Shown here piece by piece: positions 4,961 through 22,146 of a stretch of DNA of 64,000 nucleotides. This stretch comes from Longimicrobiales bacterium. Its GTDB lineage: Bacteria; Gemmatimonadota; Gemmatimonadetes; Longimicrobiales; Gaopeijiaceae. The position numbers and the translations under genes are program-made. Each line of letters opens with the position of its first letter. The first letter of the stretch is position 1. The DNA is taken from positions 3,904,001 to 3,968,000 of the forward strand of contig OZ250165.1 in NCBI GenBank assembly GCA_965238005.1. The letters run 5' to 3'. The notes below the pieces were generated by a model, which saw nothing but the letters and a program-made list of their open reading frames with translations, did no database searches and was not told where the DNA came from.

Positions 4961-5175
4961 TGAGGCCGTCTCCCCGCTCATCCTCGTCACCAACTTCTTC
5001 GAGGAATTGAAGGAGCGGGTGGGGAATTGACCCGTCAGATCCCCTGGCTTCGCGTCTTCGTGGAAGGCGTGGTGATCGTCGGCAAACCCGCTCCGCGACA
5101 ACTTGTTCTTCGAGCCCCCGTGTGCATAAGGTCGGCATACGACGACACAAGGATATTCAGCGTAGAGACTCCATC

Positions 5176-5495
5176 ATGAGCGCATCCTCGACTTGGCGGC
5201 TCTTCAGGCGGACGGTGCTCGTCGCTCTGCTTGCCGGCACCTCCTCGTGCGCGGCACCGCCGATGCGGCTTCCGCTCGCGGTGCCGCTCGCGGCAGTCGG
5301 TGGAAGTCGGTCGGCAACCCCGCAAGGCTTGTGGGCGTTGGCCGAATTCGGGGACGGCGTGTGGGGGCAGGAGCAGGAGCGAGTCGAGGTTTACGGCGTT
5401 GGCGTCGGCTTCGCCATGCGGGACCGGTTCGAGTTCAACGTCTCGGGCTACCAGCCCACCGTGATGCAGACGATCACGCAAAGCCCGTGGGAGTC
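5176..5495 (+). pseudogene. Lipoprotein gene truncated by IS3 end
   Basis: Signal peptide ending in Cys (VLVALLAGTSSC); frame runs into the IS inverted repeat at 5496. Confidence 0.5.
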
Positions 5496-6484
5496 TGGGC
5501 CTACCCCGGTTCGGTGGACAGGTGAACGCTTGTGTGTTTTCTCTCTCTTCAAAGGCCGATGGAGTCAGAGGCTTCCGCAGCGCCAGCGGCGCTGGGGAGT
5601 AGAAGCAAGCCGGGCTCCGCGGAGGTTGTCGTAGGGCCGATGTCCTGGGGAGCCCAGGTGTTCTCGGCCGCGCGCTCGCGGTTGTTTTCGAAGTTGATGG
5701 GCGACTCGTACCCGAGGGCTGAGTGGCGCCGATGCGGGTTGTACCAGCCCTCGATGTAGCGGAATAGCTCCATCCTCGCCTCGGCCGGAGTCCGGAACGT
5801 ACGGCGGTCGATGAGCTCACATTCGAGGCTCGCGAAAAACGATTCGCACATCGCATTGTCGAGGGCGTCTCCGACTGAGCCCATCGAGGGCCGGACACCC
5901 ACCTCATCGCACCGACGTCCGAAGGCTACCGACGTGTACTGGCTCCCCTGGTCGGAGTGGTGGATGACCGCCTCGGGCTTCCTCTGCCACAGGGCCATGT
6001 TGAGCGCCTCGAGCACGAGCTCGGTTCTCAGGTGCGTCGCCATCGCCCAGCCCACGATCCGCCGGCTCCACACGTCCAACACCACGGCCAGGTACAGGAA
6101 GCCCGCCCACGTCCCGACGTACGTGATGTCCGCGACCCAGAGCTGGTCAGGACCGCTCGCCGTGAAGTCTCGATCCACCAGGTCCGGTGCCGGTCGCCGA
6201 TCCTTGCCTCGTACCGTCGTCTTCGCCCCACGTCGTCGACTCACGCCCTGAATCTCCGCCTCCCTCATCACGCGAGCCACCCGATTCTCGCTCGCCGCGG
6301 GGCCTCGCGCCTTCAGCTCCTCCGTCATCCTCGGAGCTCCGTACGTCCCGTCGCTCTCGGCGTGGATCTCATGGATCTCCTCAAGCAACGCAGCATTCGC
6401 CTTCTCACACTCCGAAGGCTCACGCTCGAGCCACGCATAGTATCCGCTGGTGGAGACGCCCAGCACCCGACAGGTGGTCGTTAC
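5496..6484 (-). mobile_element. Truncated IS3-family element (orfB and right end only)
   Basis: WVADITYV, HHSDQGSQYTS, DNAMCESFF DDE motifs; end TGGGCCTACCCCGGTTCGGTGGACA resembles the ends of the IS at 11221-12565; orfA missing. Confidence 0.9.
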
Positions 6485-6586
6485 TGAAGATTCTTGTCGG
6501 GTGATCACCGGATCATGAATTCATCCGGTGGTCACCTGCACCTTGTCCTGCCTTCTGCTTGGATGAGAGCCCAGCACCCGAACCGC

Positions 6587-10214: not shown

Positions 10215-11344
10215 GACCGTAAACCTAACGGTACTCGCCTGTGCCGATGCTGACAGCGACCAGAGTCGAACTCACGGCCTCATGCTTCAGCGGCATGAAT
10301 CTTCTCAGCCTGATTCCTCTGCCGGATCTCCAAAACAATATCCACCGAACATTCTTTTCAGTCGCCCAGGGAGCCTCGCAAGGTCTATGCATATCTAAAG
10401 GGTGCGTATGGGACCCTTTTGGGGGGCATCGGTTGGATTTGAGGAGCGGGATGAGGTTCGGAAGCTTCCCATGCAACCAGACCGAACACACTGCTGAAGA
10501 GGGCTGAGCAGATGCTGCGGTAACCGTCTATGAAGCTTCCTGAGGCTCCCTGCCTCCCCTGCTCTACTCTTGATCGATCCGATACTCCACTACCTCACCT
10601 CTCGGACGATAGTGGCTCGCATGGCCATACGTGTCCTCGATGCGCGCCACGCTCTTGTGCCCCATCTCCTTCGCGACGGTCCAGAGCGCGATTTGCCTCC
10701 CGCCATCTGTGGCCTGGAGACGTGCCGTGGCGTAGGTGTGGCGGAACTTGGTGAGTCGAGGCTCGGGCATTCCGGCTTTGGAAGCGATGATGCCCAACGA
10801 CTTCCGTAGATCGGTGATCATCTCTCCGGTGCGGCTGGGGAAGAGAAGCTCATCGGGACTCTGGCCTAGTTCCTCGACGTATGGCCGAAGAATCTCCTCA
10901 AGCTGTGGCCACAGCGGCACGGCTCGCTCACTCCACACACGCTTGAGCCCGCGATACCGGTTGGGCTGGATGCGAACCAGCTTGTTCTCTAATTCCATAT
11001 CGCTCACCAGCAGCCCGAGCACCTCACTCCGCCTGCCACCGGTAAGCAGGAACGTGGCTATCAACTCGTAATGGAGATCGAGTCTCCGGGCTGCATCAAG
11101 GAACTGGCCAGCCGCATCGATTTCATAGAACTCATCTGTCCGCTGCCGCGTCGGGGCGATGGAGGGCAAGCCGTGTAGCCCCCTGACGGGATTGTATCCG
11201 AGGGGGACAACCTCCATCTCTGGAGCTGTCCCGTTTCAGTGGACGGGTGAACACTGAGGTTTATAGTCTGTCCCCCTCGCTGGGGAGAGGAAAGCTTCCC
11301 CCGCGCAGCGGGGGAGTAAAGGGCAACTTGGCCACGCAGGTTTC

Positions 11345-12196
11345 TCATGCTGCCGCTCCGTGGCGACGCTCGAAGTTGATGGGCGACAGCTGACCCAGTG
11401 CCGAGTGTCGCCTCCGGGGGTTGTAGAAGCCCTCGATGAAGTCGAACACGGCCATCTTCGCCTCGGCCTGGGTCCGGAAGCGCTGCCGGTCGAGTAGCTC
11501 GCACTCGAGCGTCGCGAAGAAGCTCTCGCACATCGCGTTGTCGTAGGCGTCGCCCACGGAGCCCATCGAGGGCCGCACACCGACATCGTTGCAGCGTAGG
11601 CCGAAGGCGATCGAGGTGTACTGGGTTCCCTGATCACTGTGATGGATGACGCATTCGGGCCGGCGCTGCCAGGTCGCCATGTTCAGCGCGTCCAGGACGA
11701 GCTCGGTGCGCAGGTGCGTAGCCATCGACCACCCGACCACCCGCCTGCTCCAGACGTCGAGCACAACCGCGAGGTACAAGAACCCCGCCCAGGTCGGGAT
11801 GTAGGTGATGTCGGCCACCCACAACTGGTCTGGCCCGTCTGCGCTGAAGTCCCGCTCGATGAGATCCGGCGCGGGACGGGCGTCCTCGTTGCGCCTGGTC
11901 GTCTTCGGGCCGCGCCGCCTCCGGCTAGCTCCCACAATCTCGGCCTGCTTCATGAGCCGGCCCACCCGCTTCTCACCGACCCGCTCGCCAGCTTCCTTGA
12001 GGTCCGCGTAGATGCGGGGCCGGCCATAGACCCTTCGGTTCTCGCGCCAGACCGTCTCGATCCGCTCTGTGAGCTCCTCATCTCGCTTCGCCCGAGCCGA
12101 AGGCTCGCGATCCAACCAGGCGTAGTAGCCGCTGGGGGAGAGATCCAGCACACGGCACATCGCCCGCACAGGGAAGTCGGCCTGATTCGTCTTCAT
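11345..12196 (-). CDS. IS3 transposase OrfB
   Basis: rve DDE motifs. Confidence 0.95.
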   Translation of the reverse strand: MKTNQADFPVRAMCRVLDLSPSGYYAWLDREPSARAKRDEELTERIETVWRENRRVYGRPRIYADLKEAGERVGEKRVGRLMKQAEIVGASRRRRGPKTTRRNEDARPAPDLIERDFSADGPDQLWVADITYIPTWAGFLYLAVVLDVWSRRVVGWSMATHLRTELVLDALNMATWQRRPECVIHHSDQGTQYTSIAFGLRCNDVGVRPSMGSVGDAYDNAMCESFFATLECELLDRQRFRTQAEAKMAVFDFIEGFYNPRRRHSALGQLSPINFERRHGAAA

Positions 12197-12507
12197 GAAC
12201 TCGAACCCCGTTCCGGGATCGAGTTGCTCTCCCGAGCAAACCAGGCGGCGGCTTTTTTTAGAATCTCCTGCTCCATGCGCAGACGCTTGTTGTCACGCCG
12301 AAGCTGCCTGAGTTCCCCACGCTCCTCCGTCGTCAGCCCGTCACTGCGACGGCCTTCATCCAAGTCAGCTTGTTTGACCCAGTTCCGTATCGCCCCGTTT
12401 GAGGGCTCGAACTCCCGGGCCAGCTCCTCCACGGAGCGGCCCGACCTGACCAACTCGACCATCTGCCGCCGAAACTCCGGCGGGTACGGCGCATGTGTTC
12501 TTGGCAT
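12193..12507 (-). CDS. IS3 transposase OrfA
   Basis: YPPEFRRQMVELV HTH; EILKKAAAWFA. Confidence 0.95.
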   Translation of the reverse strand: MPRTHAPYPPEFRRQMVELVRSGRSVEELAREFEPSNGAIRNWVKQADLDEGRRSDGLTTEERGELRQLRRDNKRLRMEQEILKKAAAWFARESNSIPERGSSS

Positions 12508-13089
12508 CGTGGACTCCTCCTGTCTCCCTCACTACTGAGGTGTCCACCAAAGCGGGTCAACTCCACTCCTGTGCGTAACCGTAGAGTCCTGAGAGGGCGT
12601 GGAGGTGGTGACGCTGATTGCTCGTCGAGAGGTGTAAGAACCGATTCAGCCACTGGCGGACATCCCTTGGTCGAATCGTCGTCATGGATCGATCCACACC
12701 AAAGTACTCTACAGCCCGCCGAAGCCTGAGCCTGGTCTCCTTCAGCCACCTCTCGGTGACACCCTTGGGGTTGTCTCGAACGAACTGTTCGACGAACGCA
12801 CCCAGCGGCGTCCCGAAGCCTGTGCCCACGGCCCCGCCGAGTGCTCTAATTCGATCAGCGAAGAGTTGAGCGGCTTCGTCGTGGTTGGTGGTTGCCCGAC
12901 TCGATCCGGGCCTCCTCAGCGCCACTTGTCCGCCTCCAAGGTCACGCAAGTCGGCGTAGTAGCGATCCTCCCCGCCCTGATTCCTGGTGTATATTTTCGG
13001 CATCTGGGGCTCCTGTCGTTACTGTCGGATGACCCAAACGCGCAATGGTAAAGGCGGAAGCCCTTTGTATTAAAAGACTTTCAGCAATG

Positions 13090-13131
13090 CCCCGCCAGGG
13101 ACTCGAACCCCGAACCTACTGATTAAGAGTC
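13090..13131 (-). repeat. att site: copy of the tRNA-Lys 3' half
   Basis: 42 bp identical to 20062-20103; a degenerate copy of the downstream terminator follows at 13050-13087. Confidence 0.95.
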
Positions 13132-13248
13132 CGCTAGCAACATATACGCAGAGTGCCCGTGAGGTCCTCTAAGTTGTGGCGAGTTAGGGCGTTAGGGGGT
13201 CGGTTGTTCTCTCGAGCGGCCCGGAGATTCGACCAGTTTCGGGGAGTT

Positions 13249-13269
13249 TGGGGTCCCGGTTGGGGTCCC
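13249..13269 (+). repeat. TGGGGTCCC-N3-TGGGGTCCC site, copy 1 (putative integrase arm site)
   Basis: Same motif and orientation at 16518 and 19964. Confidence 0.75.
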
Positions 13270-13491
13270 ATCACGCTGATTATGGCATGGGCTTCCGCCA
13301 CGGTTTCGGAGAGCAGCGGATGGCTGAAAAGGCCTCTTGTCGCGGTGGTAGATTGAGACCAGGTTTCGTCAGCCTTTCTTCGATCTCCTAGCCTTGTGGC
13401 TCGCGCACTACGCCCGCGGTCACCACATTAGCCGCGCAGCAGAAGCGCAAGGCTGTGGGCGGCCCGCGGAGCCGGTGGGGTAAGTGGTGCA

Positions 13492-14355
13492 ATGGCCAAA
13501 ACGATCGCGAGCGCTTTCAGCCAGTTAAAGGCCAACTTGGAGATAACCGGACTACAAACCGCGACGGTGTCTACTCGCCAGAAGTACGTTCGGGAGGCTA
13601 TGGTGGATGGATTTGATATTCTCTCATCCTTCCTTTCAGGCTCGTACTCTAGGGCCACCATGATCGCGCCGCTGAAGCGCAGCGATGTCGACATATTTTT
13701 CGTTCTGCGTTCCAAGTACTTTGAGAAATATACTCCCGCGCAGATTCTCGATCGTGTACGGACTGTTCTTCTTCGGACCTACAGCCAGACGCCCAAGATC
13801 AGCCGCAACGGTCAAGCGGTAACGATCACGTTCAGAGACTTCAAGGTGGATGTGGTGCCCGGATTCAATCGCAGGGGTGGGGGCTATCTGATCCCGGACT
13901 CGATCGCAGGGGAGTGCATTCCGACCGATCCGAAGGTGCACGACACGACGCTCTCCGCAGCCAACAAGACGCATGGAGGCGATCTGGTGCCCCTGGTGAA
14001 GATGCTCAAGGGGTGGAACCGCGGGATCAACGACGGCTTCGTCGGTTTCTACTTAGAACTCCTGGCAAAGAAGGTGCTCACCAATGTCACGATCAGCGAC
14101 CTCTCGAGCGGAGTGCGTTTCGTCCTGGACAAGGGTCAAGACGACGTTCGGTACCAGATCACGGATCCTGCTGGCTATGGCTCTCACATCAACCCTCTGG
14201 CCAACGTCTCAACCGTCGAGGCTGCAGTGAGTCGTTTTGGTACCGCCTGTAATCGGGCCCGGAAGGCGGAGAATTTCGCGGAATCGGGTAAGATACCAGC
14301 TGCGTTTGAAGAGTGGCGCAAGATTTTCCCGCATTACTTCCCTAAATACGGCTAG
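13492..14355 (+). CDS. SMODS/CD-NTase nucleotidyltransferase (CBASS-type cyclase)
   Basis: SGSYSRATMI...SDVDIF, NGQAVTITF, VDVVPGF, YLIPD, TDPK, LVKMLKGWN, DPAG, WRKIF. Confidence 0.9.
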   Translation: MAKTIASAFSQLKANLEITGLQTATVSTRQKYVREAMVDGFDILSSFLSGSYSRATMIAPLKRSDVDIFFVLRSKYFEKYTPAQILDRVRTVLLRTYSQTPKISRNGQAVTITFRDFKVDVVPGFNRRGGGYLIPDSIAGECIPTDPKVHDTTLSAANKTHGGDLVPLVKMLKGWNRGINDGFVGFYLELLAKKVLTNVTISDLSSGVRFVLDKGQDDVRYQITDPAGYGSHINPLANVSTVEAAVSRFGTACNRARKAENFAESGKIPAAFEEWRKIFPHYFPKYG

Positions 14356-14359
14356 CTCG

Positions 14360-14872
14360 ATGTCCGAATCGGATGCGCTACAGCCCCTCTCCGTGGAGGC
14401 CTCCAGGGTTGAGGAGGATTCGCTCTACTCTGCCCGTGGCCATTTCGAGACCGCTCGATCGTGGTCCAAGACTCACTTGTCGCTTGGAATTCCCACTGCC
14501 GTGATTGCGGGGCTGTCCGGTGTCTCAGCACTGCAAGACGCACCCCTCCTCGCTGGCGGGCTAGCGATCATTGCTGCGGCTCTGGCGTCAGTGGCGACTT
14601 TCGTAAACCCGTCAGAACGTGCGGCCGCACACCACACCGCGGGCACGAAGTTCAACTCTCTTCGAAATCGAGCTCGCATCTTCCGCGAAATTGATCTCCC
14701 CGGTCCACTCTCCATCGGGGAGAAGACGGAACAGCTGAGGACGCTCAGTCAAGAGCGAGACGAAGCCAACGAGACGAGCCCTCAGATTACCCGACGCGCG
14801 TTTAAGAGAGCAAGAAAGGGAATCGAGGCAGGTGAGGCACGTTACGCGATAGACGAAGAGCCAGCGTCGTGA
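14360..14872 (+). CDS. SLATT-domain two-TM effector
   Basis: YSARGHF..A..W, LGIP, two hydrophobic helices, NPSERAAAHHTAG; 4 bp after the cyclase stop. Confidence 0.85.
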   Translation: MSESDALQPLSVEASRVEEDSLYSARGHFETARSWSKTHLSLGIPTAVIAGLSGVSALQDAPLLAGGLAIIAAALASVATFVNPSERAAAHHTAGTKFNSLRNRARIFREIDLPGPLSIGEKTEQLRTLSQERDEANETSPQITRRAFKRARKGIEAGEARYAIDEEPAS

Positions 14873-15756
14873 ACCCAGTTGCGGTCTCGTTCCAACGCTT
14901 GATCCTTAGGATCCAGCCACCCTCAAGGGCCGTAGCCGCTGCGCGTGGCCAAATCGAGTCTGTTCGGGCGTCGGTCGTCAGACATCTCCGAGCACCAGTA
15001 CGCCGCTTCGTCAACCTAGGAAGCTACCAGAAAGGCACCGGAATTCGCGGGCGCTCTGACGTCGATCTGCTGTTTGTGATTTCTCCGGAACACGTCTCTT
15101 GGGGCGGAGGGCACATCACTTCGACCGTTTAGCTCTTAGAGCGATTCCGTCGAGCGATCTCAGCGACCTACCCTACTACCTCCATCGGTCGGGATGGTCA
15201 GTCGGTGACAGTCCGATTCGCTCGAACCGGTGTGGACCTCGACATCGTGCCAGCAGTCGAAGCCGGAAAGGTCAAGAACGCCAACCTCTATTCCATCCCC
15301 GATGGCTCCGGAGGTTGGATGAATGTCGCGCCTTTGGCAGAACTGAGGCGCTTTAAGGTGGCGGATGGGGGTAGTGGCGGGAAGCTCAGAAGGGCGGTCC
15401 AACTCTTGAAGTGGTGGAAGCATTCTCGTGCAGATGAGGTGCGGATTAGGTCGTATTACGTCGAGCTCGTCCTGACGGTCGCCGGTGTCGCGAACGGTCC
15501 GAAACCGTATTCACATATCCTTTTGGATTCGCTCGGAGTACTTGCCGACCGGGGAGCTGCGGGAATGCGTGACCCTGACGGTCGAGTGGGGGTTACTGCT
15601 GCAGTGCCGCCACGAGGGAGTGCGGACCGGGTCGTTGAATCCTTACGCCGGGCTCGGGATTACGCGGCCGAAGCCGTATGGTACGAAGAACACGGCTCTA
15701 TGGAACGGGCGGTGACCAGGTGGAGGGTATTTTTCAACGGTAAGTTTCCAGCCTAG
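14869..15756 (+). pseudogene. Second SMODS/CD-NTase with an in-frame TAG at 15130-15132
   Basis: GSYQKGTGIRGRSDVDLL before the stop; same frame continues LLERFRRAISATYPTTSIGRDGQSVTVRF, DLDIVPA, YSIPDG, LLKWWK, RSYYVE, WRVFFNGKFP; GTGA overlap with SLATT gene. Confidence 0.88.
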
Positions 15757-15837
15757 ACCGCCGTCCATCTAACCTCGGGACATGTCCGGGGCCCACCATT
15801 CGAGTACGGAATCTTGGAACAGGACGGGGACTTGCTC

Positions 15838-16386
15838 ATGACGAATTCGGATGACATCAACTTCCTAACGAGACCCCTGATCGACGCGTACCTGGAGACC
15901 TGCGTTGCCCTCATGGTTCTCAAAATACCCCAGGTACAGGACTTGGTCGGCGCCAGTATTCCCGAAGAGGCGGTAGTGTCCACGTCATATGCGGCGGATC
16001 ACGAGAACCTGGTCATCAACGTCAGGGGGATGCTCGAGTCCATGAGGGCCGAGGGGCTGGACGACGTCAGGACCCTTCAACACTCGTTCCGTCAAACGAA
16101 CCGCATCTTCCTCGGCGCAATGTGGGATGCGCTGAAGCAGCATCGGCGTTTCGATGAGATCAAGACGGAACCGGTAGTGGAGTTCCTTAGACATGTTCGC
16201 AACGCGTCCTCGCACGGTGGGCGGCTGAACTTCGGGAAGCTGAAGCGTCCAGCGAATTGGCGAGACAAGGAGATAACCGAGTCGATGAGCGGGACGCCGG
16301 TGTTTCCTGACCTACTGCAAGACGGAGACCCCATCCTACTTGTGGTCGACATCAACAACGACTTCTTCGAGCCGATCAACATATGA
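15838..16386 (+). CDS. Hypothetical protein with HEPN-like RxxxxH motif
   Basis: EFLRHVRNASSHGG in a helical-looking context. Confidence 0.65.
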   Translation: MTNSDDINFLTRPLIDAYLETCVALMVLKIPQVQDLVGASIPEEAVVSTSYAADHENLVINVRGMLESMRAEGLDDVRTLQHSFRQTNRIFLGAMWDALKQHRRFDEIKTEPVVEFLRHVRNASSHGGRLNFGKLKRPANWRDKEITESMSGTPVFPDLLQDGDPILLVVDINNDFFEPINI

Positions 16387-16517
16387 GGGGGCTGAAGGCG
16401 GTGGGCGCGACCGAGGGCCTCATTCGCGACATGACCTCTCGAGCCGTTCGGAGGCGTGGTCAGGTCACACGAGTTCGCCTCCCATCCGCCGAGTTCCTCT
16501 CACGTAACCCGAGTTTT

Positions 16518-16538
16518 TGGGGTCCCACTTGGGGTCCC
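16518..16538 (+). repeat. TGGGGTCCC-N3-TGGGGTCCC site, copy 2
   Basis: Between the two convergent operons; similarity to copy 3 extends back to 16462. Confidence 0.8.
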
Positions 16539-16916
16539 ATAGGACACGGGATCGAGCCAGGGAGATCATGACCCGACGGTCCGCGGGCTAAGGTCAGGAA
16601 GTCAACGCCGGCAAGGCGGATGGGGTTTTCGCGGAGCACGGGCCCCCCAAAGCCTCAAATGTCATCCTCAACTTGCCAGATCTCGCAATACAAGCCGCAG
16701 TCCTGACAGCACCTGCCCATCATGGCCTCAAGGCGTACTACAAGTTGATCTGATGCCGCGGTTTCTCCCGGGACGGGCCGGGATCCTTGGAACATCCCGA
16801 ATTGGGATGGTCGCCTTCGCACAAGCTGGCCCAATTCTGGAAAGCCGGTGCGGACTCGCACGGAGTTGTGGGTGCGGCACAAGCCGTCGGCAAGGACGGC
16901 TTGACGACCCACGAAT

Positions 16917-17666
16917 CTACGCGTCGAGCAGCACCTCCAGCAGCTGTGCCTGTTCATGTTCCGAAGCGACGCTCTCCAGAACAACCACCGAGAGGGTTGC
17001 CCATCGCGCCGAGTACAGCCCGAGGCGAGTCACCTCTCCTTCAAGGAACCCGTCGACGCCGTACCGGTTAGCTAGCACCGCGTAAGCCAGCAGTTGGTGG
17101 ACATGGCGATCGGTTGTTCGCGCATCTGTGGAGGTCTTGAAGTCTACGAGCATGTCGTCGATCACGAGGTCAGCGTCGGCTCCCCCGACAGCGTTCGATC
17201 CATCGCCGAAGCTGGGACCGATCACCATCCGTTCATTGTACGAGAAAAGGTTCAGGTCGGTGATCGCCACGAGGGCAGCTACCTCACGACACACGGCCAA
17301 CGCCGAGGTTCTTCTTCCATCCGAGGGGGCATGCCCCCGGGCCCGGTGGTCGTGGTCGGTGAGTGTCATCAGCGCCCGACAGGCAGAGGCCGACCAATTG
17401 TCGGACGCCCAGGCCGTTTCCACGATCGCGATGTCGGGACTCGGATCGGTCTCACAATACCGTTCGAAGGGCAGCGGCCTTACCGGGAGGTCGTGTCGTC
17501 GACCAAGACCGATTCGGAGGGCGTAGTCAAACGCCGTACCTACGCACCGGGGTGGGGCAGTACTCTCAACCCGCAAGGGTTCCGACATGGGCGCAAATGG
17601 GTTGTTAGACAAGGCCTTGAAGGCCTCTTCCACAGCTTCAGTCCGGAGTAGCGCCGTGAGGCTCAT
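16917..17666 (-). CDS. PD-(D/E)XK nuclease-family protein
   Basis: VGTAFDY, GGADADLVIDDMLVDFKT, QLLAY (RecB/Cas4-like QxxxY). Confidence 0.75.
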   Translation of the reverse strand: MSLTALLRTEAVEEAFKALSNNPFAPMSEPLRVESTAPPRCVGTAFDYALRIGLGRRHDLPVRPLPFERYCETDPSPDIAIVETAWASDNWSASACRALMTLTDHDHRARGHAPSDGRRTSALAVCREVAALVAITDLNLFSYNERMVIGPSFGDGSNAVGGADADLVIDDMLVDFKTSTDARTTDRHVHQLLAYAVLANRYGVDGFLEGEVTRLGLYSARWATLSVVVLESVASEHEQAQLLEVLLDA

Positions 17667-18010
17667 CAGAGATCCATGCCCAGCGCCAAGGAGTAGACCA
17701 ACTCCACCAATTCCTCGATCCTCTCGTCCATATCGGGGATCTCACGCCTCTCGGGCGGCGGAACCCCGCGATGGGACGCCGAGCCGTGCCAGCGCAAGAG
17801 GGCCGAGAGGTCCAGCAGGGCTCGCCTCAGTGCCGCCCGGCGCTCGCGTGGCACCGCCTCGTGCAGATCCCGTTCGATCCAGGCTTCGATGGCCGCAGGG
17901 CCCAGGCCGGGTAGTGCGTTCCGAGCGAGTCCAGACGGCTTGTTTACGGCTCGGACGATTCGCCGTTCAAGTCGGACCCGCTCGACGAACGGGTGCCCGG
18001 CGCTAGGCAA
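17666..18010 (-). CDS. Hypothetical protein (114 aa)
   Basis: Overlaps both neighbours (TGATG with downstream gene); GGAGG RBS inside upstream gene. Confidence 0.7.
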   Translation of the reverse strand: MPSAGHPFVERVRLERRIVRAVNKPSGLARNALPGLGPAAIEAWIERDLHEAVPRERRAALRRALLDLSALLRWHGSASHRGVPPPERREIPDMDERIEELVELVYSLALGMDL

Positions 18011-18716
18011 CTGGCACTACCTCCAGAGATCGATCCAGCCAAGCCTGAATCCGCTCGCACAAGGACAACAGGGACTTGTAGTCGACGGCTGGCCCATGCG
18101 ATCCACGCTCCGAGGCTCGGCGACTCGTCACGAGCGCCTCGTATTCAGCCTCGCTAAGCGGACAACACAGGTGGGAACCTCCCTGGAGTCTAAGTGGAGC
18201 CCAGGGAGAGAAGTCCGGACGGCCCAGGTGGTCCGACAGCACGATTCCGGCATTACGTACTACCGTGCCCAGCACGCCAGTATCGTACTCGCCGCTGAGG
18301 TCGTCCAGGGTCAGAGACTCGACAATGTCCCTCAAGAGATCGCGCAGGGTCGCGAGGTCTCGATGGTGGTGCCGGTATGGTTGAAGCGAGGTGAGGCGAG
18401 TCTTGAGCCAACCGTTTCGGCTCAAGAGCTCCACACCCTCGAGCTTGAGATGAAGAGCAAACAGCGACGGCGGCTCCAGGATCGACTCGATGCCTTCCAA
18501 AGTGTACGTGGAAAAATCCACCGCAGTCGCGGATTCGGGGATCGATCGGCGCAGCGTCTCGACCAGTTCCAGATCGCCCTCGTCGGCCACCACCACCAGG
18601 ACGTCGATGTCGCTGCCGCTATCGCGTGTCCCGCGCGCGTGGGACCCGAACAGCCACACCTCCCATACTTTGTTGGGGAGTCCGAGGCCGCTCAGCTCTG
18701 TCGGATCGAAATCCAT
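18003..18716 (-). CDS. halB: Pol-beta-type nucleotidyltransferase, HalB-like
   Basis: LFGSHARG...SDIDVL, SLFALHLKLEG; overlaps the pentapeptide/channel gene. Confidence 0.75.
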   Translation of the reverse strand: MDFDPTELSGLGLPNKVWEVWLFGSHARGTRDSGSDIDVLVVVADEGDLELVETLRRSIPESATAVDFSTYTLEGIESILEPPSLFALHLKLEGVELLSRNGWLKTRLTSLQPYRHHHRDLATLRDLLRDIVESLTLDDLSGEYDTGVLGTVVRNAGIVLSDHLGRPDFSPWAPLRLQGGSHLCCPLSEAEYEALVTSRRASERGSHGPAVDYKSLLSLCERIQAWLDRSLEVVPVA

Positions 18717-19600
18717 CGATAAACGACGGCAGCCAGGACGCCCGTGTAGACGATGCCGAGAACGGCCTGAATCGTGCTTGGGATTTGGAAGTCGCTCGAC
18801 CCTCCATACGTGGCCGACGTCCCGGCGAATCCCCTCGCGCTGTGGAGGAGAGCCTCAGTCGCCGCCCCTACGATCGATGCTGCACTACCGTCAAAACCGA
18901 ACGCGCCAGCGTCGACGCCCAGATACCAACCAGCGAACGCGACCACCAGGACGAGGCCCAGCAAACCAATTTGCAGTAGGCTTTCGCCGTAGCCCCACAT
19001 CCAGCGTTCCATGTGGGAGACCACCAGGCGAAAGAAGGCTCCCACCCGGTCGAAATGACTGAATCGCGTCTTGAAGTAATCTTCCTTGTACCGAACCGTC
19101 GCCCACAACTGGCGCCGTCTCTGGTTCATTGATTCGAACAGGATCGACCGGGCCGAGGTCCCGTCTCCCTGCGTGATCGCATTCGTCCGGAGAGACTCCA
19201 GAACTTCGTGGCATACGTTAGGCCACTCGTATGGTAAGTGTGGACTCAGGGTGGCAAAGGGAATGGCGGTGTCTGACCATCTGGAGTAAGCAAACTTGCA
19301 TGCCGTGAACTGAACTTTGCGGAACTCGCAACCGGTGAACCTGCAGTCCTTGAAGTCGCAATGATCGAACGTCGTATGGCGGAAGTAACAGTCGACGAAC
19401 ACGCTGTGCGAAAAGTCGACGTGCTCGATCTCGCAATCTTCGAAGCGGACCCCCGTGAACAGGGCATACCTTAGAAGGCGGTTCTCTCCCTTCAATTGCA
19501 GCTCGACGTACCGCTCGTCTACAATGGCCGAGTTTTCCGATTCAGCGCCGAAGGGGCTCAGCGAGCCCTCGACCTTCTTCCGGGATCCCAGGTTGATCAC
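18692..19600 (-). CDS. halA: Pentapeptide-repeat plus two-TM ion-channel-like effector, HalA-like
   Basis: F-x4 repeats (FEDCE..DFSHSVFVDCYFRHTTFDHCDF), SLRTN...GD, WGYGES, TM-pore-TM C-terminus; GGAGG RBS. Confidence 0.75.
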   Translation of the reverse strand: MINLGSRKKVEGSLSPFGAESENSAIVDERYVELQLKGENRLLRYALFTGVRFEDCEIEHVDFSHSVFVDCYFRHTTFDHCDFKDCRFTGCEFRKVQFTACKFAYSRWSDTAIPFATLSPHLPYEWPNVCHEVLESLRTNAITQGDGTSARSILFESMNQRRRQLWATVRYKEDYFKTRFSHFDRVGAFFRLVVSHMERWMWGYGESLLQIGLLGLVLVVAFAGWYLGVDAGAFGFDGSAASIVGAATEALLHSARGFAGTSATYGGSSDFQIPSTIQAVLGIVYTGVLAAVVYRWISIRQS

Positions 19601-19963
19601 GCCGCACCCTCCGTCCGGTGACCCTCGCTGGCGTCAGTCCGCATCGTCGAGACCCATGCTATACGCGGCTCATGATCGCATGCGCATTCCCCCACTCGCA
19701 AGGAGGGCGCTTCGCTCGTCATTCGGCAATGCTCTTCACGATCACCACGCCCCTGGCCATTGGTCGCTGTGGGGCGAACGGGGCAGCGCCCAGAGCGGCC
19801 GCATACCGATCATCCAATCCGCCCTCACCCTCGACGGCAGGTCGTTGCCGCCCTGGGGTGGGCGGCGTGTCTCAAAGGGCAACCACCCGTGCCCGCCAGT
19901 AGCCATGAGGTCACCCGAGTCCCCTCCCGTGCCGACCAGTCCCCGCCAGGTAACCGGAATTTT

Positions 19964-19984
19964 TGGGGTCCCATGTGGGGTACC
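19964..19984 (+). repeat. TGGGGTCCC-N3-TGGGGTACC site, copy 3
   Basis: About 75 bp inside the tRNA-proximal att. Confidence 0.8.
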
Positions 19985-20019
19985 AAAGCCCCCTTTTCGG
20001 GCCCTAACTCATCGGTACG

Positions 20020-20057
20020 AAAAGGCGGAAGCCCCTGTATTCCAAGGACTTCCGCCT
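20020..20057 (-). terminator. Intrinsic terminator after tRNA-Lys
   Basis: Stem AGGCGGAAG/CTTCCGCCT followed by a T run on the minus strand. Confidence 0.75.
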
Positions 20058-20059
20058 AG

Positions 20060-20133
20060 TACCCCGCCAGGGACTCGAACCCCGAACCTACTGATTAAGA
20101 GTCAGTTGCTCTAGCCAGTTGAGCTAGCGGGGC
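20060..20133 (-). tRNA. tRNA-Lys (CTT)
   Basis: GCCCCGCTAGCTCAACTGGCTAGAGCA ACTGACT-CTT-AATCAGT AGGTTCGGGGTTCGAGTCCCTGGCGGGGTA folds as a cloverleaf; CCA not encoded. Confidence 0.97.
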
Positions 20134-20318
20134 AAAACCTTGTTACACAATCACTTAAGGTACTCGTAACACCATTCTCTATCCTACTGTATGTCCAATC
20201 GTATGTCCTAGTTCCGAGCCTTCCTCGTTTTTGTTGTGAATTTGCATGAGTTGTTTCAACTCTCCGAGTCCCCCGACATCGTGTCAGTTGGGTACCGCCA
20301 TGCCCTTTCGACTTGGGC

Positions 20319-20377
20319 GACTAACGTGCAGCTCAGCGGCGCGGCTTGTCCGCGTCCGCTGAAGTGCTTGGTTCGGC
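20319..20377 (-). other. Integron attC site (59 bp)
   Basis: GCCGAAC-caagc-ACTTCAGCGGACGCGG..CCGCGCCGCTGAGCT-GTTAGTC; imperfect palindrome with extrahelical bases. Confidence 0.88.
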
Positions 20378-20593
20378 TTCGAATCTCTTCCTTTCCTGTT
20401 TCCAGGATTTCTGTAGAAGGCGGTCCATAAAGGGAGAGACGGCGATTCCGACTCCTGCACCCCAACCGAGCAGAAATCCAGCCGCCGCAGTACCGATAGT
20501 CCACCAAGCAAGCCCGAAGATGAGGCCAAGAGCAATCCCGAGGATTGTTCCTAGGAAAGCCCCCAGGAGACCCAGCATCTCAGGCAACGTCAT
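20333..20593 (-). CDS. Integron cassette gene: small two-TM Gly-rich membrane protein
   Basis: RBS AGAGG shortly after the upstream GTTCGGC; stop lies inside its attC. Confidence 0.75.
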   Translation of the reverse strand: MTLPEMLGLLGAFLGTILGIALGLIFGLAWWTIGTAAAGFLLGWGAGVGIAVSPFMDRLLQKSWKQERKRFEAEPSTSADADKPRR

Positions 20594-20621
20594 GTCAAGA
20601 CACCTCTAATCATTCTGTGAG

Positions 20622-20681
20622 GCCGAACGCCTTGGCGATCAGCGGCCGCCGAAGCCGGTCCGCTGAAGCAGTTCGTTAGAC
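20622..20681 (-). other. Integron attC site (60 bp)
   Basis: GTCTAAC-gaact-GCTTCAGCGGACCGG..CGGCCGCTGATC-GTTCGGC. Confidence 0.88.
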
Positions 20682-20738
20682 GGAGCTCGCACGCCCGTTG
20701 CGACCACTCCGTGATAGCACCGGACGATCTTTTGAGTC

Positions 20739-20945
20739 TCACGCCTCAGCTTCGATTCCCCGTGTTCTCGCCCAATCGAGAACGGCAGCCCAAGCGCTCC
20801 TCACAGCCTCCCCTTCCGTCGGTGTCGGCTGCTTTCCCGCATACTCGGCAGCATTCCGCGCCTCGGTGACGACGATCATGAGCGCCACGGTCTCTCGCGG
20901 GATCACGTTCTCATTCTTAAGCCTCGTAATTATCGCCATAGGATA
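20739..20945 (-). pseudogene. 5'-truncated cassette gene, HEPN/DUF4145-like C-terminus
   Basis: IITRLKNENVIP...EARNAAEY; followed by attC. Confidence 0.45.
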
Positions 20946-21052
20946 ACATGGAGTACGACCCACGGTCCGTCTAGGGTGGTACAATGACGGTGTGTTTCAG
21001 TGGGGTGGGTGGTGAGTGGTCCCCCCATCTGTCATCACATCGCCCGTAACAA

Positions 21053-21664
21053 TCACTTGAAGTTCAAACGCATCGTGAGCCGTCTCACCTTTGAGATCGT
21101 ATTTGGTGAGCAACCCATTAATTTCTGGATCTCTACCCCCTTGTAGCCTCGCTGGAGGTAATCGGTAATCCGCTGGATTCGGGGCTTCCGTAGAAACTTG
21201 GCCCTTCCCTCAACACTTCCGGGTTTCCGACCGACATAGGCCCCTTTCGCCTTCGCAATCGCTATCCCTTCCAGCTGTCTCTCACGGATCTGTGATCGCT
21301 CCATTTCGGCGACGACACCGAGTACACTGATCACGAGTCGAGAAGTAGAGTTCTGACGGCCATCGTCATCGAGAGTACGAAGTCCCTCCTTTTGAATACG
21401 AATGGGGACCTGGTGTTCGGTGAAGAGTTCGATGGTCTTTAGGATGTCGAGCAGATCCCGACCCAACCGGTCCAAGGAATGGACGACCAGTTCCTCTAAA
21501 TCTCCGGTGTTTATCGTGTCCACGACCATTCGTCCAGCTGGACGCTCTTGAAACGGTATTGATCCCGAACACCGATCTTCGAAAACCTTCATGCCCTCGA
21601 TCGACGTGAGTTGCCGATCAGTCTTCTGATCCAGTGAACTGACCCTAGCGTAGAATGCGATCAT
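21053..21664 (-). CDS. Serine recombinase (resolvase/invertase)
   Basis: YARVSS, SLDRLGR, AEMERSQIRERQLEGI, C-terminal HTH; RBS GAGG. Confidence 0.93.
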   Translation of the reverse strand: MIAFYARVSSLDQKTDRQLTSIEGMKVFEDRCSGSIPFQERPAGRMVVDTINTGDLEELVVHSLDRLGRDLLDILKTIELFTEHQVPIRIQKEGLRTLDDDGRQNSTSRLVISVLGVVAEMERSQIRERQLEGIAIAKAKGAYVGRKPGSVEGRAKFLRKPRIQRITDYLQRGYKGVEIQKLMGCSPNTISKVRRLTMRLNFK

Positions 21665-21685
21665 CCAATGTACCTCGTGAATCAT

Positions 21686-21724
21686 TACTATTTTAGGATA
21701 TACGGCCAAAACTCTAAAATAGTA
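21686..21724. promoter_or_regulatory. Putative res subsite / operator
   Basis: Perfect 11-bp IR TACTATTTTAG...CTAAAATAGTA in an AT-rich tract upstream of the resolvase. Confidence 0.6.
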
Positions 21725-22146
21725 TATTTTCGACCATATTCCAAGACAATTTTCCTTGGTGGTTTGGTACGACGTTCTATCCTCGGAGGCCCCACGGTCC
21801 CTTGTAGGGGGGAGCTTCAACTCAGTTCATCACTGAATTCTCTACAGGTCGGTCCTGTGGAATTCCCCGAACACCTCGACTCGACAACCAAGCATCCACG
21901 AGATCTTGGTTCACGTTCTCATACCAGAGGGTGGTCTTCTCAAGTTTCTTCCCCTTCTTGAGACTACGACACCGTCCAATCGCCTTTTCCTTCCACCAGT
22001 CCACGACCTCCGGTCGAGGCCCCCTTCCGAGCCCTGTCTCACTGGGAGCGATAGCTCCTAATCCTGGCGCTCGACTGGTGGAAGACCCATGGTATGATCC
22101 GGCTGGTCTCCTTTTCGAGAGCCCGAGTCAGCTCGCGTTGCGACTC

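Follow-up and report, generated by a model that had tools for sequence, protein, structure and literature searches.

In a 64-kb window of the genome of a Longimicrobiales bacterium (the whole stretch of DNA that was analysed), a tandem motif, TGGGGTCCC-N3-TGGGGTCCC, occurs three times around two defence-type gene clusters beside a tRNA-Lys(CTT) gene. We consider it probable that these doublets are the distal ends of both arms of an attP-type site of about 345 bp, which is common to small integrase-less units stacked at tRNA-Lys. Their integration target is the 3′ half of tRNA-Lys(CTT) or tRNA-Lys(TTT), and they stack head to tail, leaving junctions in the order B arm, core and A arm. Almost no unit encodes a recombinase. 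Our verdict is tandem accretion of units without an integrase, and the group that bears the arms consists of little-studied sediment bacteria, Longimicrobiales (Gemmatimonadota). In the following, G000 is the genome holding the window, other G numbers are related genomes and L numbers are extracted loci.

When the window was searched with the 21-bp doublet pattern (two mismatches or fewer), three matches were obtained, all on the + strand. The doublets at 13249 and 16518 (copies 1 and 2) have no mismatch, and that at 19964 (copy 3) has one, its second half being TGGGGTACC. None of 100 dinucleotide-preserving shuffles of the window contained a match. The single TGGGGTCCC 9-mer gave 30 matches in the window (one mismatch or fewer) versus 33 expected, which is no enrichment. 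Because the single 9-mer is only at chance level, the signal resides in the doublet. A preliminary description of this DNA had reported three same-orientation doublets at these positions, about 78 bp shared by copies 2 and 3, and a middle copy lying between two defence operons. The pattern search and the shuffles confirm the first point. For the second, copies 2 and 3 have 81 nt in common at 74% identity (16462-16542 versus 19908-19988; 78% over 82 nt by BLAST), and the third also stands, the operons being of CBASS type (cyclic-oligonucleotide-based antiphage signalling system; 13492-16386, + strand) and nucleotidyltransferase (NTase)/pentapeptide type (19600-16917, − strand). The same description treated the three copies as one site type, which is not so. 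The flank of copy 1 differs from those of copies 2 and 3, and about 185 nt of it are instead common to other loci of G000. Copy 1 belongs to an A (P-type) arm and copies 2 and 3 belong to B (P′-type) arms.

The features of the island are listed in Table 1. The two cores (13090-13131 and 20062-20103) are identical over 42 nt, and this core has only four copies in G000 at eight or fewer substitutions. Because exact 42-nt copies of the tRNA 3′ half flank both sides, 13132-20061 is a 6.9-kb island, and the distal core is the far att junction of this composite. No recombinase gene was found between the cores by Pfam scan. The geometry is fixed: the A doublet (copy 1) starts 117 nt from the core to its left, and the B doublet ends 74 nt from the 3′ end of the tRNA, which the full B arm adjoins directly. 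The B arm contains a hairpin followed by a U-run (20025-20057) on the tRNA strand, with a tRNA-sense fold of -34.9 kcal/mol; as predicted from this fold, the hairpin would terminate the tRNA transcript. A simple terminator scan of the window did not call this hairpin, whose loop is too long for the scan, and RNAalifold over all B rows, truncated rows included, gave no consensus. An Rfam search of the arms returned the tRNA only, plus a far sub-threshold match on the opposite strand of the tRNA. The order B arm, hairpin, core and A arm constitutes an attP-like junction of about 345 bp. As in an attP-type site, the core is identical at both ends, and the repeated arm motifs are distinct from the core and lie at a conserved distance from it.

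Table 1. Features of the tRNA-Lys island and of the neighbouring integrase element (window coordinates)
Feature	Position	Strand	Description	Basis
Tyrosine integrase of older element	10564..13003	-	N part 12557-13003, C part 10564-11217	Pfam PF00589 on C part
IS3-family insertion splitting the integrase	orfA 12193-12507; orfB 11345-12196	-		Pfam rve, HTH_Tnp_1
P′ arm of integrase element	13004..13089	-	Degenerate terminator-like hairpin 13050-13085 and one ACAGTAAC 5′ of the int start
Distal core	13090..13131	-	Exact 42-nt copy of tRNA-Lys(CTT) 3′ half, anticodon loop to 3′ end	Repeat search
A arm (P-type)	13132..13270	+	147 nt, beginning at distal core; ends in doublet 13249-13269	82-88% identity to 5 other G000 loci
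Unit 1 cargo	13271..16461	+		Pfam SMODS, SLATT_4; PADLOC
Unit 1 CD-NTase	13492-14355	+		PADLOC Cyclase, E=3.7e-90
Unit 1 2TM/SLATT effector	14237-14872	+		PADLOC 2TM effector, E=3.3e-59
Unit 1 second CD-NTase, broken	14869-15132; 15205-15756	+	87-aa N piece; 183-aa C piece	Pfam/PADLOC
Unit 1 190-aa open reading frame (ORF)	15814-16386	+
Truncated B arm	16462..16544	+	Doublet 16518-16538; B homology ends 6 nt past doublet (CATAGG)
Midlike segment	16547..16645	+	99 nt	84% to G061 (L134) beside A arm
Unit 2 cargo	16646..19907	-		Pfam, NCBIfam, hydropathy
Unit 2 249-aa ORF	17666-16917	-
Unit 2 114-aa ORF	18010-17666	-
Unit 2 Pol-beta-type NTase	18716-18003	-		Pfam
Unit 2 pentapeptide-repeat protein	19600-18692	-	Two C-terminal hydrophobic segments	Pfam, hydropathy
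Full B arm (P′-type)	19908..20058	+	About 55 nt, doublet 19964-19984, spacer, hairpin and U-run	Sequence comparison, fold
tRNA-Lys(CTT)	20059..20133	-	Integration target	ARAGORN; Rfam tRNA 65.4 bits

According to the preliminary description, each defence module is bracketed by direct copies of the site. These are not usable sites in each case: alignment with the full B-core-A junction of G061 revealed no hairpin, core or A arm after the middle copy. The truncated B arm is instead followed, after 2 nt, by the segment named midlike in Table 1. In G061, the full junction runs B arm, hairpin, core, A arm, 45 nt and then the midlike segment, and in the metagenome loci L153 and L169 the segment likewise follows A arms at 80-92% identity, with partial matches in L167 and L174. 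The midlike segment thus seems to mark the former start of unit 2, which would once have possessed its own A arm. Because of the order in G061 and the position of the midlike segment right after the truncated B arm, the simplest reading of the middle copy would be a deletion of about 0.3 kb that removed the hairpin, the core and the A arm. A deletion exactly between two doublets was rejected, because B-type sequence runs 6 nt beyond the doublet. Units 1 and 2 are apparently no longer separable via recombination at a core. Since these three parts of the middle junction are gone, the units of CBASS and Hailong-like type now make up one 6.9-kb composite, which lies between intact cores. The midlike segment, which has no Rfam match, recurs after A arms with unrelated cargo in several genomes and also stands alone at G000 3503306-3503392, upstream of a thioredoxin-like gene.

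The preliminary description had allowed that the motif might be a generic genome-wide repeat. G000 contains ten doublets (two mismatches or fewer), all on the + strand, and the reversed-pattern control gave one. An A-type or B-type flank is present at 10/10. Because all ten copies are in att-arm context, the doublet is no generic repeat. Among these sites are two complete B-hairpin-core-A junctions, 13 kb apart (G000 4319269-4319548 and 4332265-4332544), which have CTT-type cores and no tRNA nearby, and the 12.7-kb unit between them (L009, L010) carries a PycC-like cyclase, a GajB-like helicase fragment and a cyclase-kinase-WD40 protein. A-type arms without a nearby partner B arm are present at 351751, 1073162 and 3662527, the last of which adjoins a 2OG-Fe(II) oxygenase gene 18 kb from a tRNA-Lys(TTT). 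The site at 351751 is a hybrid doublet, flanked by A-type sequence on the left and B-type sequence on the right, and that at 1073162 is a triple repeat. The K-channel gene after the A arm at 1073 kb recurs at 4313 kb with 97.9% identity. G000 further contains two dense tRNA arrays of 17 genes each (1035994-1037821 and 4451264-4453598), the first of which holds a second tRNA-Lys(CTT).

The hybrid site and the triple repeat speak for a reading in which the doublets are the exchange points themselves, with site-specific or homologous recombination at or between the 21-bp repeats and not at the tRNA core. The end of A-arm conservation right after the doublet also agrees with this idea. However, truncated B arms break at differing points, from 6 to about 130 nt past the doublet, exact cores that match the local tRNA sit in the junctions, and A-arm subfamilies share more sequence beyond the doublet. 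We therefore regard exchange at the doublets as very unlikely.

In the related genomes, we found the doublet (one mismatch or fewer) in 6/60 and the A arm (by DNA search) in 4/60; many of the 60 are fragmented assemblies, from which such repeats may be missing. Arm arrays were found beside tRNA-Lys(TTT) or (CTT) in G001, G002 and G011, and in four further genomes that came from the one-genome-per-species scan described below (G061-G064), with a spacing of 1-15 kb and with four or more units in the longest. Altogether, at least eight related genomes have cargo units divided by such junctions at tRNA-Lys. Their junctions are either full B-hairpin-core-A junctions or B arms truncated at various points, and the cores in the junctions match the type of the local tRNA, CTT or TTT. 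The preliminary description implied that module boundaries in relatives should coincide with the motif, and in these arrays they do. We aligned 19 A and 27 B copies from eight genomes. Column identity was 80-95% across the whole arms; A-arm conservation stops a few nt past the doublet, and B-arm conservation starts about 55 nt before it. The core repeat, the fixed geometry and these 19 A and 27 B copies support the earlier view of the doublets as att-arm elements. A scan of one genome per species gave 87 exact doublets. Those in arm context were in Longimicrobiales and other Gemmatimonadota, from which the group takes its name here, and most others were coding WGP-type repeats or chance matches. 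A metagenome scan gave 38 loci with an A-type doublet. Three copies (about 99% identical) of a group II intron ORF with reverse transcriptase and maturase domains (L132 8629-10131, L133 12717-14219, L138 6539-8041 (G064)) adjoin three B arms in which a variant hairpin and non-tRNA sequence replace the usual hairpin and core.

The cargo of the units was examined by Pfam scan of 264 arm-neighbouring ORFs in four batches: 41 from other loci of G000, 46 from G001, G002 and G011, 86 of 107 from metagenomes, and 91 of 92 from G061-G064. The other 21 metagenome ORFs belong to near-copies (about 99% identity) of loci that the scan covered. The cargo includes DEAD-box helicases, Na/H exchangers, K channels, a Mo-oxidoreductase with cytochrome c, MacB/FtsX pumps, NHL and TPR proteins, hydrolases, pilins, TIR and kinase proteins, transporters and insertion sequences (IS). 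Thus, the defence modules named as cargo in the preliminary description are not typical, since the cargo elsewhere is mostly non-defence (transporters, oxidoreductases, helicases, pilins and IS). Its proposal of units that have their own recombination ends and no integrase is borne out by the arrays in relatives and by the count of tyrosine recombinases, which was 2/264. One of the two, a P4-like integrase, has an Arm-DNA-bind_3 domain and four CATTTGGACGC repeats of its own beside a CTT core. The other, an Xer-like fragment, lies in G062 at about 370 nt from a B doublet; it was rejected as the partner, being frameshifted and having no close copy near the other examined arrays. None of the 48 PF00589 matches in G000 lies within 20 kb of a doublet except the split integrase of the window. 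The DNA 5′ of the window tRNA (20134-21820) is low in GC (0.51-0.56) and holds a 255-aa resolvase-domain gene. This resolvase (21053-21820) was also rejected as the partner: no relative was found in the other fetched array loci, and its one match, over 37 aa, is in an unrelated Xanthobacter locus.

Several results weigh against a living trans-mobilised system. The cognate integrase was not found, both tyrosine recombinases among the 264 ORFs being unsuitable; PF17293 (Arm-DNA-bind_5) was absent from the matches in G000, five array-bearing relatives and 401 Gemmatimonadota genomes; viral contigs gave no match for either arm pattern; the doublet is no better conserved than the remainder of the arm in the alignment of 19 A and 27 B copies; and many junctions are truncated at varying points. 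Because of the last observation, part of the system appears to be decaying. The missing integrase, the many truncated B arms, that in the middle of the window included, and the identity of only 78-88% among the arm copies within G000 would also be explained if the arms were fossil sites, namely functionless remnants in static arrays, alike by common descent.

Signs of movement argue against such fossils. One cargo segment, which includes GT2, shows 98.0-98.3% identity when G011 is compared with each of G061, G063 and G064, and 99.0-99.1% when G061 is compared with each of G063 and G064. The tRNA flanks are far more diverged (84.6% for G061/G063 and 78.3% for G001/G062). Thus, cargo segments are 98-99% identical between genomes with tRNA flanks of 78-85% identity (for G061/G063, the cargo is 99.1% identical), and this contrast suggests recent exchange between genomes. 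An Na/H-exchanger gene of G000 recurs at 91% identity in a metagenome contig, as the only gene of a unit that has an A arm at one end and a B-core-A junction at the other. Depth relative to the strain's unique DNA in four sequencing runs was about 5-60x in the A-arm bins and about 140-330x in the bin of the B arm plus tRNA, to which the tRNA's own conservation adds. This high depth of the arms and the constancy of the arm boundaries across many genomes and unrelated cargo do not fit with fossil sites either, and we judge that explanation unlikely. In the contigs of the four runs, no excision or circle joints attributable to this strain were seen. The three long joints of run X20 are marked by short sides (30 nt), low depth or about 91% likeness, and they fit the arms of other organisms. 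Parts of unit 2 were uncovered in run X24, which is uninformative either way.

A tyrosine integrase gene, split by an IS3-family insertion, abuts the distal core. In the version that follows from the preliminary description, each module is separately mobilisable, and this integrase, with the IS removed, reads the doublets. Three observations are in line with that version: the integrase element abuts the core beside the A arm, the hairpin region is common to its P′ arm and the B arms (31 nt at 74% with 20021-20051), and an intact ortholog in G013 adjoins an intact tRNA-Lys(CTT). The arm repeats, however, differ. Upstream of the G013 ortholog is AGCAGTAAC-GT-AACAGTAAC, and its fetched locus contains no TGGGGTCCC doublet at three or fewer mismatches. 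An intact paralog in G000 (1776334-1777425), in which amino acid 146 of the N part is joined directly to amino acid 1 of the C part, sits at tRNA-Arg(TCT) in a 22-kb island (1776164-1798341, L015). The P′ arm of this island is AACAGTAAC-N4-AACAGTAAC, and its P arm has two AGTAAC 12 nt apart. Thus, the ortholog and paralog arms carry ACAGTAAC-type repeats or AGTAAC doublets and no TGGGGTCCC, and the window integrase keeps one ACAGTAAC. Homologs of the integrase N part are present in 16/60 relatives, including 7/36 in f1, the one family to which arm-positive relatives belong. G011 alone has both such a homolog and doublets or arms, and there the hit is 36% identical and more than 1 Mb from the array. 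Because its arm repeats are different and its relatives do not co-occur with the arms, we conclude that the neighbouring integrase most probably belongs to an older, different element using the same tRNA, and we rejected it as the partner. Mobilisation of the units by a repaired integrase would be unlikely even if the enzyme were intact, and with the middle junction lacking a core, the version as a whole is very improbable. The IS inside the integrase has about 20 copies in G000. A second IS3-type copy with 75% identity (5035-6508) is located 5.7 kb left of the IS (11230-12560) that splits the integrase. In L015, a reading frame upstream of the far repeat looks, by eye, like an excisionase-type helix-turn-helix protein.

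Tandem 9-11-mers, spaced comparably from the core, also accompany other tRNA-targeting integrases of the group (four CATTTGGACGC, two TTGGACGCCAC and two AACAGTAAC). The TGGGGTCCC doublet itself recurs in Bacteroidota. In Mucilaginibacter pineti (L184), the same TGGGGTCCC-N3-TGGGGTCCC is 122 nt upstream of an Arm-DNA-bind_5 tyrosine integrase, and a hairpin and then tRNA-Lys(TTT) follow the doublet in B-arm orientation. In Dyadobacter soli (L183), the doublet is likewise upstream of an Arm-DNA-bind_5 integrase, and only a short core of tRNA 3′ end follows. In a second M. pineti locus (L185), a doublet with one mismatch is across the core from an integrase with its own AGTATACCGAA repeats. With this second Arm-DNA-bind_5 integrase and its AGTATACCGAA doublet (L185 5785-6100), the locus looks as if two element families lay in tandem there, much as they do in the window. 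Because the Bacteroidota doublet lies between arm-binding integrases and tRNA-Lys, it supports the arm-type-site role, and we infer that the doublets may be arm-type binding sites of a heterobivalent tyrosine integrase supplied in trans. An Arm-DNA-bind_5 integrase was rejected as the partner in Gemmatimonadota, and since that domain was not found in G000, five array-bearing relatives or 401 Gemmatimonadota genomes, the enzyme must be of another kind or rare. It is possible, if still doubtful, that the units are tRNA-anchored cassettes of a system working like an integron, each with the two halves of the 345-bp attP, shuffled among Longimicrobiales by a trans-acting recombinase that reads TGGGGTCCC doublets, the same doublet being used by Bacteroidota arm-binding integrases at tRNA-Lys.

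We propose the following sequence of events. The site B arm, hairpin, core and A arm is common to a family of integrative units in Longimicrobiales, which are small (1-15 kb). On integration, the B arm replaces the sequence downstream of the tRNA and supplies a predicted terminator, and the A arm comes to lie beside the displaced copy of the core. Repeated integration at tRNA-Lys then gives head-to-tail units. An integrase acting in trans, probably not the adjacent IS-split one, would read the doublets. In the window, the older integrase-bearing element probably came first, with the CBASS-type unit stacked on it next and the Hailong-like unit later. The internal junction would then have lost its hairpin, core and A arm by the deletion described above. 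Only the whole composite, 13132-20061, still has intact cores and both arm types at its ends.

The window cargo proteins have no relatives in any other fetched locus. Unit 1 has the makeup of CBASS, a CD-NTase plus an effector (PADLOC). In the available part of its description, Hailong is a two-gene HalA/HalB system with a membrane effector, HalA, and an NTase, HalB (PMC13434031). Unit 2 scores far below the NCBIfam cut-offs for these families (HalA 46.6 bits versus 250; HalB 39.7 versus 190) and is therefore not Hailong by family cut-offs; its gene pair and hydrophobic segments would fit a distant relative. "Hailong-like" is fair for unit 2 as a resemblance, not as membership. A motif of about 70 nt (13384-13455), 5′ of the CD-NTase gene, folds to -26 kcal/mol and has many copies in relatives, with 25 among the matches listed in G061 alone; contigs in the four runs join this motif 8 nt after an A doublet.

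The arrangement of the operons bears on whether the doublets control expression of the cargo or the tRNA, as operators or signals of another kind. Copies 1 and 3 are placed as operators would be, copy 1 at 222 nt upstream of the start of the CD-NTase gene and copy 3 upstream of the divergent operon. However, copy 2 is downstream of both operons, doublet orientation is fixed relative to the tRNA whatever the orientation of the cargo, no promoter-like site was called at the arms, and the cargo is unrelated from unit to unit. A role in expression is highly improbable.

To our knowledge, and with no literature search aimed at mobile elements of this phylum, almost no mobile-element biology has been described for Gemmatimonadota. 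If the units are mobilised in trans, they would represent a second route, besides integrons, to pool and stack single-function cassettes at one site; the cassettes here carry defence, transport and redox functions. The sequence of the long conserved arms offers a simple way to take stock of the cassettes present in sediment metagenomes, and the doublet in common with Bacteroidota integrases is a concrete lead to the missing enzyme. In this island, two defence systems are now welded into one unit.

Among known systems, integrons consist of intI, attI and arrays of promiscuous recombinase-less cassettes, which are divided by a conserved recombination element (attC) and carry adaptive cargo. The preliminary description proposed an integron-like platform. 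The island is not an integron. In place of attC hairpins, its 260-345-bp junctions include the 3′ half of a tRNA, the cargo is oriented variably, and a unit may have several genes. Neither intI nor attI adjoins the array, no integron-type integrase was found at either array end, and the window integrase scores 18 bits on the integron integrase model versus a cut-off of 265. The platform is the tRNA 3′ end with classical attP × attB logic, nearer to the accretion of cis-mobilizable elements (CIMEs).

Heterobivalent integrases, such as those of lambda (P/P′) and mycobacteriophage L5, have arm sites of tandem direct 9-11-bp repeats on both arms, 60-140 bp from the core and unlike it in sequence. 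By analogy, the doublets may be compared with these sites, because they too are tandem direct repeats on both arms and distinct from the core. The Bacteroidota tRNA-Lys elements are similar in that the doublet, hairpin and tRNA-Lys 3′ end have the same order and orientation (L184). They differ in that their integrase is 120-270 nt from the doublet. Arm-DNA-bind_5 was not found in 401 Gemmatimonadota genomes.

Tycheposons of Prochlorococcus tRNA islands, in the part of the report available, are elements defined by an integrase of their own, whose successive integrations push older ones inward, with partial tRNAs and degraded remnants, and 910/937 of them carry a tyrosine recombinase, often with replication genes (10.1101/2020.12.28.424599). 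So far as that part goes, the present units resemble them as cargo-carrying elements at tRNA genes that build islands by successive integration, and differ in having no integrase or replication genes of their own and in having long conserved arms. CIMEs of the ICESt1/ICESt3 type in Streptococcus, in the portion of the source at hand, keep attL and attR without integration genes, lie in tandem at one target gene and form composites by site-specific accretion (PMC5704250). Compared with that portion, the adjacent element here shares the core, but its integrase is IS-split and its family's arm repeats differ; a resident partner with matching arm sites was not seen. Integrase-less units are here the rule, in dozens, with unrelated cargo, no int remnants and a Gemmatimonadota host, unlike the CIMEs described there. 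Like those CIMEs, the composite 13132-20061 is flanked by att cores and contains no recombinase.

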